From: Eledone cirrhosa | Lineage: Eukaryota | Direction of reading: 5' to 3' | Assembly: GCA_964016885.1 (NCBI GenBank) | Contig: OZ024743.1 | Coordinates: 147,126,001 to 147,190,000 of the forward strand | DNA length: 64,000 bases | In this document: positions 9,231 to 34,864 of the stretch, one piece after another | How positions within the stretch are numbered: position 1 is the stretch's first letter | Layout: the number at the start of each line of letters is the position of its first letter | Translations under genes and position numbers: made by a program | The notes under the pieces: model-generated | What the model was told of the DNA's origin: nothing | Database searches by the model: none | The model's input: only the letters and a program-made list of their open reading frames with translations

Positions 9231-9806
9231 ACAATGTCTGTAACATCTTTCTTTTCCCCACTTGCTTTACAAGATAGAGGAAACCCCAGCACACATAGTT
9301 AGATGTAATACTTTTCTTTTTTTCCCCTTTATCTCTTCTTCTCACTTCCTTCCACCCCCTCTCCTCTTCCTTTTCCTTTTTCCTCTTTCGTTTACCCTGA
9401 GGCAGCTTATGGGGCTTTTGTAGCCTCAGTACCCCCACCCCCCTGAATTCTATATTGCATTGGCTGAAAACGCAACACCAGCTAAAAATATAGCAACTGT
9501 TTTAGGCTGTAGTTTTTTTTAAATTTTATAATTTCCCATTTTCAGATTCCTGGATAATTCTATTTTCGCTTGCTTTCTAGCTAGCCTACTTCATCCACAC
9601 TCCTTATAATTTGCTGTATAGAATTTACTTTTAACGCTTGACTTGCTTCACCCACTCCCTCATTGTTCTACAGGCAAGTTCCGCCACCCCCACCCCTACC
9701 CGCCTCCATTAACGATTTAACTGTGTTTACAAGACATTTCGACCAATCCTTTTGATAACTACAACCTTCAGAAATGCCTGATTATCGCATGCCCATATAT
9801 GGAATT

Positions 9807-9901
9807 ACACCTTGAAGAGTTCGGCTAGATCATTACCATGTTAAAAATTTAATTTAGTCCAGAAATAGACATCGAAATGGCTTGAGCTCTGCCGTCGGGG
9901 T
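9807..9901 (+). ncRNA. hammerhead ribozyme family A, decayed copy at the 3' end of the PLE
   Basis: ACACC-TTGAAGA-stem II-GAAA-TGGC(TTGAGCTCT)GCCG-TC-GGGGT. Confidence 0.6.
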
Positions 9902-9934
9902 CCTGAACCTTTTCCTATATATATATATATATAT

Positions 9935-10260
9935 AGGAAAAGTATGACCCCGACGGCAGAGCTCAAGCCGTTTCGACGGCTATTTCTGGACAAAAGTAAG
10001 AGTGTTTTTAGTCTGATAAATAAATAGCCGAACTTTTCAAGGGGTACTCCCTTATATGGGAAGATTGTAGTTGTCAAGAGCATTGGTCAAAATTTGTAGC
10101 AGACACAGAAAAGTCTATCATGGCAGTGGGGGTGGAGGTGGCTGAACTTGCTTGTAGAACAATAGGGGAGTGGGTAGAGCCGATCAAGCGTTGAAGGTGA
10201 AATCTACACGGCAAATTCTCAAGAAAGTGTAAGAAAGTAGGCCAGGGGAGGTAGGCGAAA
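9935..10260 (-). mobile_element. diverged PLE family A 3' region, tail-to-tail with the preceding copy
   Basis: Reverse complement aligns with about 9580-9915 (CCCACTCCC..ATTGTTCTACA.GCAAGTTC.GCCACC). Confidence 0.8.
9947..10045 (-). ncRNA. hammerhead ribozyme family A (U3-A8 core, long stem II)
   Basis: ACCCC-UUGAAAA-G UU CGGCUAUUU..AAAUAGCCG U C-GAAA-CGGC loop GCCG-UC-GGGGU. Confidence 0.75.
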
Positions 10261-10285
10261 AAAGGTTTCCTTAGAAAATGGAGGA

Positions 10286-10371
10286 GGGACGTTATAGAAA
10301 AGGTAAATCAAATGAGATTTTTTTTTCTTTGTCCCCTAATCTCATTTGATTTACCTTTTCTATAACGTCCC
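10286..10371. repeat. perfect 34-bp inverted repeat with 18-bp spacer
   Basis: GGGACGTTATAGAAAAGGTAAATCAAATGAGATT and its reverse complement. Confidence 0.95.
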
Positions 10372-30482: not shown

Positions 30483-30568
30483 GATGACACGCGTTTCGCT
30501 ATTAATCAGCTGAAGGTTCGATCTGCATCGATCTGGCCCGACTCGGGAATCAAAAGCTCGTCGGACCT
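30483..30568 (-). ncRNA. candidate hammerhead with branched stem II
   Basis: GGU-CCGACGA-GCUUUUGAU..AUUAAUAGC-GAAACGCGUGUC-AUC. Confidence 0.45.
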
Positions 30569-31545
30569 CTGCTGTTGTAATGGATATATATATATATATA
30601 TATATACATATATATATATATATATATATATATATAGAGAGAGAGAGAGAGAGAGAGACGGTGACAGAGAGAGGTGGAGAGGGGGGACGGGGGGATGGGG
30701 TAAAGTTCCATACAAATCAAATGTTATAGGTAAATAGTAACAATGGAAAATCACAGAAGTTATACCAATCGAAACCAGTAATATTTGACAAAATTTATTA
30801 TCTACTCAATGTAACCTTTCATTCTGTTCGATTACAGTAAAACTAGAAATTTTTAAATACAACTCTTTCTTTTTTATTTTTAATTCTTACCTATAATCTT
30901 TCATTCGTACGGAAATTTACTCCTTCCCGCGCTCGCTCTCTCTCTCTATCTATATATCTATATGTGTGTGTGTGTGTGTGTAAATACTTATATGCATACG
31001 CGTACACACACAGCATACACACACTCTCTCTCTTACACACAATAACATATATATAATATATACATAATTATTTATATATGTATATATGTATGTACACACA
31101 CACACACACACACACACACACACACACACACATACATATATATATATTCATATATGTGTGTGTATGTATTAAGACAGGGACTGACGCTTCAATGTAATAT
31201 ATTTTATTCTTAATCACACGTGACACGTGTTTCGTGAATATCCAGCCCGGAGCTTTCATCAGTTACACTCAGCTCAACCCTAGTTTCGATTTGTTCATTG
31301 GACGCAAATGGCATTAGAATCAGAATATGTTCAATTCTGTACCACCTTTAGTAATTAGTATTTCCCAGTATCCTACGCGCACACACACACACACACACAC
31401 ACACACACACACACACACACACACACACACGCGCGTATATATATATATATATAATATGTTTATATATATACGTGAGTATATATATATATATATGTTTATA
31501 TATGTATATATATATATATTTTTATATATGTATATATATATATAT

Positions 31546-32787
31546 AATATGTTGAAAAGGTAACACACTAGAAAGGGATACAGTGCGCTATCAATAAAAC
31601 AGGGAAAAATCAACAGTGTATGGAATCTATAATCTATGAAAAGCAGAGTATAGACACGATAATTAAAAATATAAATTAAAGCGTAAATAAATACCTTTAT
31701 AACTATATAACACACGTACAAATCCAAAGTGATCTGTTTCGCCAGTGAGTTGTTGACAGATATGAAATAACCCAGGTTCATCAGCGTGTTTAAGGCTATA
31801 CATTTCAGACAACACTAAGAGAATTTTTAAAGCAACCGTCCAGCTACACGTGGGAGAGAGAAGTCACAGCGTGTTTAAGGGCAGTGAACCAGTGGCCTCT
31901 GAGAGACGAGCTGCTAGAAAGGGCATCCCAAAACCACTCAGAGAAGTGTGCTCAACCTAACAACTTACTGGCGAAACAGATCACTTTGGATTTGTACATG
32001 TGTTATATAGTTATAGAGGTATTTATTTACGCTTTAATTTATATTTTTAATTATCGTTAGTATACTCTGCATTATAGATTCCATACACTGGTGGTTTTTC
32101 CCTATTTTATTGATAGTGCACTGTATCTCTCTCTAGTGTGTTACCTTTTCAACATATTGTATTTTAAAGAGTTCGGGATTTCCTCTCCTCTGAGCACATT
32201 ATTTACAGGGAACGGCGAGAGTCTATGGCTCCGTTAACGTATCGTGATATTTCGCTCCTTATAACAGTATTTCCTCTCTCTCTGTTTGGTTGAGCACACT
32301 TCTCTGAGAGGTTTTGGGATGCCCTTTCTAGCAGCTCATCCCTCAGAGGCCACTGGTTCACTGCCCTTAAACACGCTGTGACTTCTCTCTCCCACGTGTA
32401 GCTGGACGGTCGCTTTAAAAATTCTCTTAGTGTTGTCTGAAATGTATAGCCTTACACACGCTGATGTACCTGGGTTATTTCATTTCTGTCAACAACTTAC
32501 TGGCGAAACAGATCACTTTGGATTTGTACGTATGTTATATAGTTATAGAGATATTTATTTACGCTTTAATTTATATTTTTATTTATCGTGTCTATACTCT
32601 GCCTTTCATAGGTTATAAATTCCATACACTGGTGGTTTTTCCCTGTTTTATTGATAGCACACTGTGTCTCTCTCTAGTGTGTTACCTTTTCAACATATTG
32701 TATTTTAAAGAGCTCGGGATTTCCTCTCCTTTGAGCACATTATTTACAGGGAAGGCGAGAGTCTATGGCTCCGTTAATGTATCGTAA
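31546..32787 (+). mobile_element. family G retrozyme-like element: inverted arm plus about 1.5 tandem 532-bp units
   Basis: 31546-31960 is the reverse complement of about 32284-32699; 31959-32245 repeats at 32491-32787; HHR at 31712-31789 (minus) and 32456-32533 (plus). Confidence 0.85.
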
Positions 32788-33080
32788 TATATATATATAT
32801 ATATATATATATATATATATATATATATATATATATATATATATATATATATATATATATATACACACATATATATATACATATATATATACATATATAT
32901 ATGTGTGTGTGTGTATATATATATATACACACACGCACATGTGCATATATTATATGTATATATATAAAATATAATATAATATATATTATATATATATATA
33001 TAATATATGCACATATGTGTATGTATGTGTGTGTGTGTGTGTCAGTTAGGTGTGTAAATCTCTTTCTATATATATATATA

Positions 33081-34005
33081 TAATTGGAGGCTTAGTAAAA
33101 TCGAATCTTTGGTGGTGTGCAAGCAAATTCGACCTACGATATGAATGAGTTAGCAAAGCACTCGACAAGGGTAGGTCCTTAGAGTAATAACATACGTTTA
33201 AATAGCTTGACAAATTGAACATTCTGGCAGGCAACATCTAACACACAATACCAAAGTAACGAAAGAACTAACAGGTTGAAAAAATACACCTGGACAAATC
33301 AAACGTTATACGTTTAAAGAGTTTCTATGAAACCGAAATCAAATATCAGACTTACGTAACTGGCAATCTCGTGGTATTCGTGATCGAACAGAGGACTCAT
33401 TTCATCAACATGAATTTCGTTCTACCAAAGAACGGGGCGAATACTAAATGGTGCTGCTAGCAGCAGCGATTCGAAAATTTAGTTGTCACGTGTTATTTCC
33501 AACAAGGGAAATAACCCCGGTTTTTGGCGGGTCATTCAAATTGTTATATACAGGAAATATTATAATTTCCGCTAACATTCAGAATAAGCTCTCAACCAGA
33601 TGTTATTAAACAAACACAAATAATTAACCAATCAACAGAATTGTCTAATTCAATTAATTAGGTAATTATTAAATCTAGGAGAAAATAATATAATTGGAGG
33701 CTTAGTAAAATCGAATCTTTAGCGGTGTGCAAGCAAATTCGATCTACGATATGAATGTGTGTGGTCCTTAGAGTAATAACATACGTTTAAATAGCTTGAC
33801 AAATTGAACATTGTGGCAGGCAAAATCTAACACACAATACCAAAGTAACGAAAGAACTAACAGGTTGAAAAAAATACACCTGGACAAATCAAACGTTATA
33901 CGTTTAAAGTGTTTCTATGAAACCGAAATCAATTATCAGACTTACGTAATTGGCAATCTCGTGGTATTCATGATCGAACAGAGGACTCATTTCATCAACA
34001 GGAAT
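33081..34005 (-). mobile_element. family F tandem (about 1.5 units) with two hammerheads
   Basis: TAATTGGAGGCTTAGTAAAATCG at 33081 and 33691; HHR at 33288-33412 and 33878-34002. Confidence 0.85.
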
Positions 34006-34864
34006 TATATATACATATATATATATATGTAAAAGCGTTTATGTATATTTTTTTGTGTGTTTGTGCTTGTTTGTATGTTTGTAGTCTATATTTCATTACC
34101 GACAGTTTTTTTCACAAATTCATCTCACTTTTGTTAATTTGTTTTGGAATAATATATATCGTAACCCCACAATTCACGCTCGTGGATGATATCACTCCTC
34201 ATTTCTGCCTCTTAATATTATACAGTAATATTATACGTTTGTGTAAGGCATTTGATGGTCTATTTCATGGGGATTTTGATGACCCTTTATCACTTCTATT
34301 ATTAGTATATATTTGGTTCTAACTATACATTTTAGTTGTGTTTTGTGTATTGTTAATAGGTGTAGTGTCTCGTGTAATTCTTGTGTTCTATTTGTAATGG
34401 TAATATTCTGTTTTGTTGTTAGAATGTTTAATGTTGACAAGCAATTATTAACTTGTCTGGGATTCATTACCTGGCACATTCTTCTCTGGGGAGTATCTAA
34501 AGACTATTCTAAATTGATATTTTACTACTGACACATTATACCTATTTGGACATTTGCTGTACACAGTTAAGTATGCTCCCTTTTCTGAGTATTTGGTGTA
34601 CAAGGACATATGCATCTGTTATTTCCTTTCTGAATATTTATGTCTAGAAATGGGGTTAATATATTCATAGGAGATTTATTTGTATCGTTCTGGAACTGGA
34701 TGTTTAAGACGAAGTTATTTTCTTGTCTGTTTTTTAATGCTATCACGTTTTCCGGTGTGCTTATTACGACGAATATATTGTGTATTTACTACGCATAGGT
34801 GCTACTTTGTTTTATATTGTGACCACAATGTACACATGGCTACTCGCTTTTTTTAACAGCTGAG

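Follow-up and report, generated by a model that had tools for sequence, protein, structure and literature searches.

Why should one short piece of a cephalopod chromosome hold so many hammerhead ribozyme motifs beside its (TA)n tracts, and what carries them there? We asked this of a 64,000-nt window of the Eledone cirrhosa genome (assembly GCA_964016885.1, positions 147,126,001 to 147,190,000 of contig OZ024743.1, a chromosome-scale contig of a 3.0-Gb genome), concentrating on a 24.2-kb region within it. A preliminary description had listed 14 sites there in at least nine unrelated islands and had read the region as a landing zone for ribozyme elements mobilized by Penelope-like elements (PLEs). 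On sequence grounds, the hammerhead set is real and well supported, and a known system accounts for it: Hydra-type Penelope elements together with retrozyme-like repeats in (TA)n.

Islands free of microsatellites make up 16.9 kb, and a type I hammerhead scan detected 6 motifs in them; dinucleotide shuffles averaged 0.03 and none of 60 reached 6, so the density is far above the shuffled-island control that the preliminary description had called for. A strict CUGANGA scan of the islands gave 2 motifs (0.00 in shuffles), and a scored scan accepting any base at position 4 gave 8 at a score of at least 10 (0.05 in 20 shuffles). An Rfam scan (E ≤ 5) showed no hammerhead family among the matches listed (150 of 426), which were microsatellite-driven and mainly microRNA models. 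The majority sequences of all nine families described below fit the strand order stem I, core, stem II, GAAA, stem III, NUH, stem I. As had been claimed, almost all sites are bounded by (TA)n: (TA)4 lies within 260 nt downstream of 14 of 15 motifs checked. The claim of nine or more islands survives as nine families, but not every site is whole. Nine look intact (9947, 11829, 16840, 27263, 28306, 29911, 30185, 31712 and 33878) and five are damaged (23713, 25467, 30483, 32456 and 33288). Could such motifs be chance folds in AT-rich repeat fragments? Seven of eight single motifs are no more stable than their shuffles (z 0.5 to −1.9), and one satellite stretch yielded false matches. This explanation is nonetheless refuted, and we give it practically no credence, because of the 6 motifs against 0.03 and because core positions left free obey hammerhead rules; covariation in three families (D, F and H) also counts against it. 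The sites very probably represent nine repeat families with type I hammerhead motifs, for which cleavage is predicted.

These families, A to I, resemble one another only in words the size of the core (best blastn E 0.08), and each is a dispersed repeat in the genome (first-look candidates, which are not copy numbers: A 1872, B 257, C 1236, D 854, E 2350, F 1400, G 469, H 3859 and I 2138). Cores were tallied in each family over its 20–30 top-scoring copies, a sample that favours sequences close to the window copy. In five of the nine families the core would escape a strict CUGANGA search, as had been anticipated. Family A has a U3-A8 core in 30/30 copies, and its motif at 9947..10045 (minus strand) is intact, with a long stem II, a GUC site and a minimum-energy fold that is the hammerhead (z −1.7). 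The same core occurs in 12/20 copies of family G, represented at site 30185 by an intact minimal motif with a palindromic stem III (30183..30231, minus). U3-A8 is known from Schistosoma PLEs, which hold about 1,300 (PMC4209133).

Family B carries U4A in 25/25 best copies, and in 50 of 53 over all loci when the core is left free. Its cleavage triplet is CUU in 22/25 copies and UUU in the window copy at site 11829 (11838..11888, minus), where a U.U pair closes stem II; this corresponds to the known U10.1-U11.1 mismatch (PMC3088659). Family F has U3.G8 in 20/25 copies, and nine F-like rows comprise five with U.G and four with U-A at 3-8. Its members are 28306..28440 (plus; long stems II and III, fold z −2.9) and two subfamily copies on the minus strand: 33288..33413, with a stem I of only 2 bp, which is the second unit of a 590-bp tandem, and the intact U3.G8 motif at site 33878 (33879..34002). 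Family H has U4C in 17/20 copies; the window copy (30483..30567, minus) has G17 and a broken stem I. The register of this family is fixed because a sister group with canonical U4 has stems I and III swapped for other base pairs. U4C, found in a viroid and of reduced activity in vitro, is among the natural core variants of Perreault et al. 2011 (PMC3088659).

The remaining families have canonical cores (C 25/25, D 19/20, E 15/20, I 25/25). Family C lies at 16840..16892 (plus, intact) and, as a subfamily copy, at site 29911 (29916..29964, plus). Family D has an intact minimal motif with near-palindromic stem III at 27263..27332 (minus) and a subfamily copy at 23713..23880 (minus, as an alignment row). 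In the latter, a short interspersed nuclear element (SINE)-like insert at about 23734–23825, with an 18-nt duplication, separates the hammerhead at 23826–23880 from the greater part of the 3′ strand of stem I. The minimal family E motif (25467..25502, minus) has A6G in the window copy. Family I provides an intact motif at 31712..31789 (minus), the inverted arm of a retrozyme-like insertion, and a copy with A9U and a stem I mismatch at 32456..32533 (plus).

Variants of the kind collected by Perreault et al. thus recur here fixed in multi-copy retroelement families; the U4A of family B was not met in the available part of that account. A whole-word literature search pairing U4A with hammerhead returned no paper, with Lunse et al. 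2017 on PLE hammerhead variants outside its reach, and we found no published report of a U3.G8 family core. What is new here is that variant cores are fixed in whole families, most notably U4A in a coding element; such cores may be active.

What carries the motifs is clearest in family A. One array consists of 3,531-bp units with a 717-amino-acid open reading frame (ORF) and a U3-A8 hammerhead at the junction, about 190 nt before the next start codon; these tandem units are young and their ORFs intact. Pfam assigned no family to the full 717-amino-acid ORF. The endonuclease search gave 64,764 first-look candidates, many with long open frames. Of 30 loci recovered with that endonuclease, 26 have an A hammerhead following it on the same strand at a distance of 565–1118 nt. 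Family B motifs, 3,313 bp apart, flank a near-complete ORF with frameshifts that is about 50% identical, and family C has its hammerhead before the ORF start in one locus and after the ORF end in another, the ORF being in pieces. A single ORF with reverse transcriptase (RT) and C-terminal GIY-YIG endonuclease is therefore full in A, near-full in B and in pieces in C; in H there is a weak C-terminal trace. The A, B and C proteins hold the Hydra motifs RW[RK], DKT, CxCx5C, CxxC and CxH, have no CCHH, and have a single cysteine inside the GIY-YIG core. An assignment to Neptune was dropped in favour of Hydra on motif comparison with Craig et al. (PMC8557442); the homologues listed, at least 120, bear no clade names.

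Within the window, this layout is preserved in a family A element that the site list of the preliminary description had passed over. A 5′-truncated Penelope-like ORF end with CxCx5C linker and GIY-YIG (8679..9230, plus) is 83% identical to residues 535-717 of the full ORF, with a weak Pfam GIY-YIG match under the cut-off (E 0.012). It is followed by a 3′ untranslated region (UTR) and a decayed hammerhead (9806..9901, plus) with G8 opposite U3 and stem II mismatches, and the element ends at TA, at about 9915, before (TA)10. The 9947 motif is a second insertion, facing it.

Families A, B and C thus probably represent the 3′ termini of Penelope-like retroelements whose proteins are of Hydra type, and the other families would likely be such ends or non-coding passengers. 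For those others several findings weigh against this. The endonuclease trace of family H is weak, lying 1.5 kb upstream in one locus (E 4e-5 and 5e-4), and no ORF link was found for D, E, F, G and I, for which no upstream-walk search was made. No ORF lies within 1.5 kb of D, E or G. ORFs beside E (L165), G (L175) and H (L203) were considered as carriers; they lie downstream or past microsatellites and were treated as neighbours. The proposed Penelope link accordingly stands for A, B and C, is weak for H and was not recovered for the rest. Separately, another GIY-YIG family (L175, L305, L119, L228 and L050) shares about 32% identity with family A and has its own hammerhead-like end about 250–330 nt past the endonuclease domain.

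The proteins and layout match the Hydra clade of Craig et al. (PMC8557442), which has RT followed by C-terminal GIY-YIG, the same RW[RK], DKT, CxCx5C, CxxC and CxH motifs, (TA)n targets, a hammerhead near the 3′ end, an inverted truncated arm and a tail at one end. Hydra-1_Obim of Octopus bimaculoides already combines a (TA)n preference with a canonical hammerhead in the supplement of that 2021 study. Differences are also clear: the Hydra hammerheads in its File S2 are all CUGA, whereas A has U3-A8 and B has U4A; units here measure 3.3–3.5 kb with 3′ UTRs of about 1 kb, against published Hydra elements generally <3 kb; tails run to about 30–80 nt rather than 30–40; and the 64,764 endonuclease candidates compare with a handful of described families.

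Might all nine families instead be non-autonomous retrozymes, that is, tandem, non-coding repeats that form circular RNA? Families F and I look the part. Their same-strand repeats are spaced 534–627 bp and 532–545 bp, with no ORF found, inside the 51–972 bp retrozyme range (bioRxiv 10.64898/2026.07.22.740005), and, like metazoan non-LTR (long terminal repeat) retrozymes, they consist of non-coding units in tandem, each bearing a single type I hammerhead (PMC7229834; bioRxiv 10.64898/2026.07.22.740005). They may work like retrozymes, and the retrozyme reading may hold for these two alone. Even so, their 530–630 bp units exceed the 170–400 nt of retrozymes in Cervera and de la Pena 2020 (PMC7229834), they mostly have one to two units, and I also makes inverted arms, unlike the retrozymes of that account. 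As an explanation of the whole set the idea is unlikely, given the RT/GIY-YIG ORFs joined to A, B and C, the H repeat that extends more than 1.5 kb upstream of its hammerhead, and the near lack of short same-strand spacing in D, E, G and H. The islands are mostly 5′-truncated retroelement ends, so the picture of free-standing ribozyme elements does not hold beyond F and I. Three background stretches (L237, L225 and L245) contain tandem retrozyme-like hammerhead repeats of about 592 bp (U3-A8) and 311 bp.

Is the fold itself kept? The strongest answer came from a background of 59 ten-kb stretches (590 kb) taken at round-number positions on chromosome-scale contigs. After dropping L243 and L249, we searched 57 of these with positions 3, 4, 7, 8 and 17 left free (score at least 12). 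Among 55 matches, 53 had a Watson-Crick 3-8 pair (43 C-G, 10 U-A), 51 had U4 and 53 had a base other than G at position 17; three shuffles gave 2, 2 and 0 matches. This is a stronger test than compensatory counts, for which alignments were gathered by sequence similarity and controls do not correct for relatedness. Those counts nevertheless showed compensatory changes in all three families counted, in line with the covariation foreseen by the preliminary description: 35 cells changed on both sides against 13.9 shuffled in D (21 rows), 36 against 13.8 in H (29 of 43 rows, non-redundant) and 6 against 2.8 in F (9 rows), with far lower values in slid controls. The kept 3-8 pairing, U4 and non-G17, the covarying stems and the intact cores of young A units therefore point to selection on the catalytic fold, at an unspecified step. 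Other observations pull the opposite way. By the pair-count measure D does not exceed its shuffles (8 versus 6.8), nor does F; the minimum-energy fold of B and H is not the hammerhead; and B lacks diverged sister copies in which covariation could appear.

The ends of copies bear on how the elements spread. Family A copies meet (TA)n at +17 (67/175) or +97 (51/175), both past the cut site and both TA dinucleotides in the intact unit. Family B ends cluster at +21 to +25 and +54, and family C ends at about +15 to +23 and +89 to +94. Inverted pairs join one long and one short end in 49/56 cases in A, 14/17 in B and 41/44 in C; partial tandems (pseudo-LTR, pLTR), an inverted 5′-truncated arm and a tail at one end are all present. 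The anatomy is thus an RT and GIY-YIG ORF, a long 3′ UTR, a hammerhead and the next unit, with 5′ truncation and an inverted second arm. Two fixed ends fall on TA dinucleotides beyond the predicted cut site, and load follows (TA)n density. Families D and G have inverted arms; E and F showed no inverted pairs.

Copies that end beyond the cut site require a template that spans it, hence either an uncut tandem RNA or a re-joined circle. We compared 12 multi-unit family A loci picked for long ORFs. In 9 of them, variants common to all units of the locus were absent from the other 11 loci, the inverted arm included in three, and two arrays carry a variant in units two and four of four full units. 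The U3-A8 core is intact in each of the 34 young A units, and of the 19 full ORFs 15 have an open frame. The shared private variants fit repeated copying of one template, two-unit in two cases, as proposed by Cervera and de la Pena 2014 (PMC4209133). Young five-unit arrays, each with one variant in alternate units, stand at L300-L301 (G000:C1:437196501-437216500) and L359-L360 (G000:C1:91471001-91491000), the latter running into a 55-bp tandem repeat of at least 30 copies built from its truncation point.

We propose that a transcript over tandem units would be cut at each hammerhead, as a monomer in A, B, F and I and as a dimer through self-complementary stem III in C, D, E, G and H. The stem III self-duplexes of C, G and H (−15, −8 and −13 kcal/mol) are as expected for the dimer mode of PMC4209133; those of D and E reach about −2. 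A host ligase would likely close each cut unit into a circle. The endonuclease would nick (TA)n, and the RT would prime at two UA sites just beyond the junction, one per DNA strand, and continue round the template. Most copies would be a hammerhead end alone because most copying rounds stop early, and such ends are likely to build up wherever (TA)n tracts offer targets. For the circle step itself, suggested by copy ends and private variants, we put the chances at about even. Several results tell against it: private variants common to all units are missing from 3 of the 12 loci, a single diverged locus supplies 26 of the 50 shared variants, 38 variants are confined to one unit, and the long/short arm rule is weak in D (2/11), G (5/7) and H (5/10) by the tail markers used. 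Later tandem duplication, gene conversion, homogeneous source arrays, assembly effects or an uncut tandem transcript would give similar array patterns.

The last of these deserves weight as an account of its own, in which the same elements spread by RT copying of an uncut tandem precursor while the hammerheads cut little or act elsewhere, for example in freeing the 5′ end, and U4A-like cores are weakened or dead. Ends downstream of the cut site need just an uncut RNA, in vitro cleavage by minimal PLE hammerheads was poor (PMC4209133), Naiads lack canonical hammerheads and spread all the same (PMC8557442), and family B, which has no covariation evidence, prefers another fold. The 3-8 pairing, U4 and non-G17 kept across the 55 background matches, the stems that covary between subfamilies of D and H, and the U3-A8 core retained by 34/34 young A units speak the other way and make this account possible though not probable.

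Minimal PLE hammerheads (PMC4209133) resemble the set described here in having many families per genome, mostly as single truncated copies, with opposite-strand pairs, a palindromic stem III for dimer action and a U3-A8 variant. They differ from A, B, F and I, whose stem III is stable, and the U4A, U4C and U3.G8 family cores were not met in the available part of that account.

Does the region stand out from its genome? Counting all copies with a shared 34-cluster library, we found 19 loci in 24.2 kb, or 7.9 per 10 kb against 2.7 in the background (2.9-fold; P about 0.006, being reached in 0.6% of resamplings), and the rest of the window has just 2 loci in 39.8 kb. Such figures could suggest a special hot spot, either a trap like a PIWI-interacting RNA cluster or an open-chromatin landing zone. 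The region, however, contains 147 (TA)6+ tracts, whereas the first 40 background stretches have about 18 per 10 kb, and loci per tract are 0.129 in the region and 0.130 in the background. Because per-tract load equals background, TA content explains the per-kb excess. Across the genome, load rises with the number of tracts (Spearman 0.67), as many as 10–12 loci and 7 families per 10 kb occur in single background stretches, and 40/43 background copies are no more than 150 nt from (TA)5, compared with 555/2000 random positions. Intact motifs are unexceptional: the region has 5 in 24.2 kb, and 25% of background resamplings give at least as many. The hot-spot reading is thus largely refuted and highly improbable. 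The region is dense per kb but not per (TA)n tract, and its description as a special landing zone falls, with 29 clusters found in 590 kb elsewhere; it is merely a TA-rich sample of a genome-wide state.

The scale of that state is large. At a score of at least 12 the background gave 81 matches, against 1–5 in five shuffles; 4 matches of satellite stretch L249 were dropped before the estimate, leaving 77 in 29 sequence clusters. Extrapolation gives 3.9 x 10^5 intact-looking hammerheads genome-wide (bootstrap 2.6–5.3 x 10^5; shuffle equivalent 1.3 x 10^4), an estimate that rests on 0.02% of the genome and an ad hoc score. The largest published count we found is 126,247 in axolotl (28 Gb, stricter search; PMC7229834). 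At about 4.5 per Mb against about 130 per Mb here, the comparison is rough because descriptors differ. Counts of 4,000 and 9,000 minimal PLE hammerheads per genome have been called 'remarkable' (PMC4209133). Our literature search found no cephalopod hammerhead survey; a giant squid paper gives 235 Rfam hammerheads, and in an O. vulgaris repeat paper the word 'ribozyme' occurs 0 times. It is conceivable, and we offer it tentatively, that this genome is a hammerhead archive larger than any in the literature consulted. It would comprise dozens of families with ~4 x 10^5 intact motifs, would owe its spread to active Hydra-type elements copying hammerhead-cut, re-joined circles (monomer and dimer), and would include family-fixed U4A and U3.G8 cores that are catalytically active.

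The role of hammerheads in endonuclease-bearing Penelope elements has been described as unclear (PMC8557442). Here a cut-and-circle model can be tested directly in a young family that has intact ORFs, forms multi-unit arrays and shows both private variants at individual loci and two mapped ends past the cut site; the genome also supplies natural core and stem variants (U3-A8, U3.G8, U4C and U4A) with sister families for comparison. Beside the variant cores, the estimated scale and the sequence patterns that make the circle model testable are what is new.

Smaller pieces of the same families complete the region. Fold-backs join two truncated family A 3′ halves of a young subfamily, without the CUGA-side core, at 15305..15398, and two truncated family B ends at 19178..19292. 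A small end fragment of A lies at 18465..18494, and 3′ halves of C and G lie at 21958..21999 (plus) and 30762..30812 (minus). At 23965-24080 there is a fold-back fragment of a further family, a piece without the cleavage-site part; fuller copies show cleavage site, GAAA and then CUGAUGA, a permuted (SGC) order. An abundant repeat at 10845-11524 (10–21 matches per 50-nt bin in the 59 background stretches) begins at a TA tract and has a core-like word closely before GAAAC and a strand able to pair with sequence lying ~50 nt downstream; no convincing hammerhead could be fitted to it. The SINE-like repeat is very abundant and often tandem (12220-12600, 17023-17153, 23734-23829 and 39950-41800; 60–115 matches per bin in the background). 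The window also contains a 136-amino-acid open frame at 48450-48860, which we take to resemble a piece of a PIF1/Helitron helicase, and two young minisatellites, one of about 40-bp AC-rich units at 13925-14990 and one with an 18-bp unit in about 10 copies at 42760-42950.

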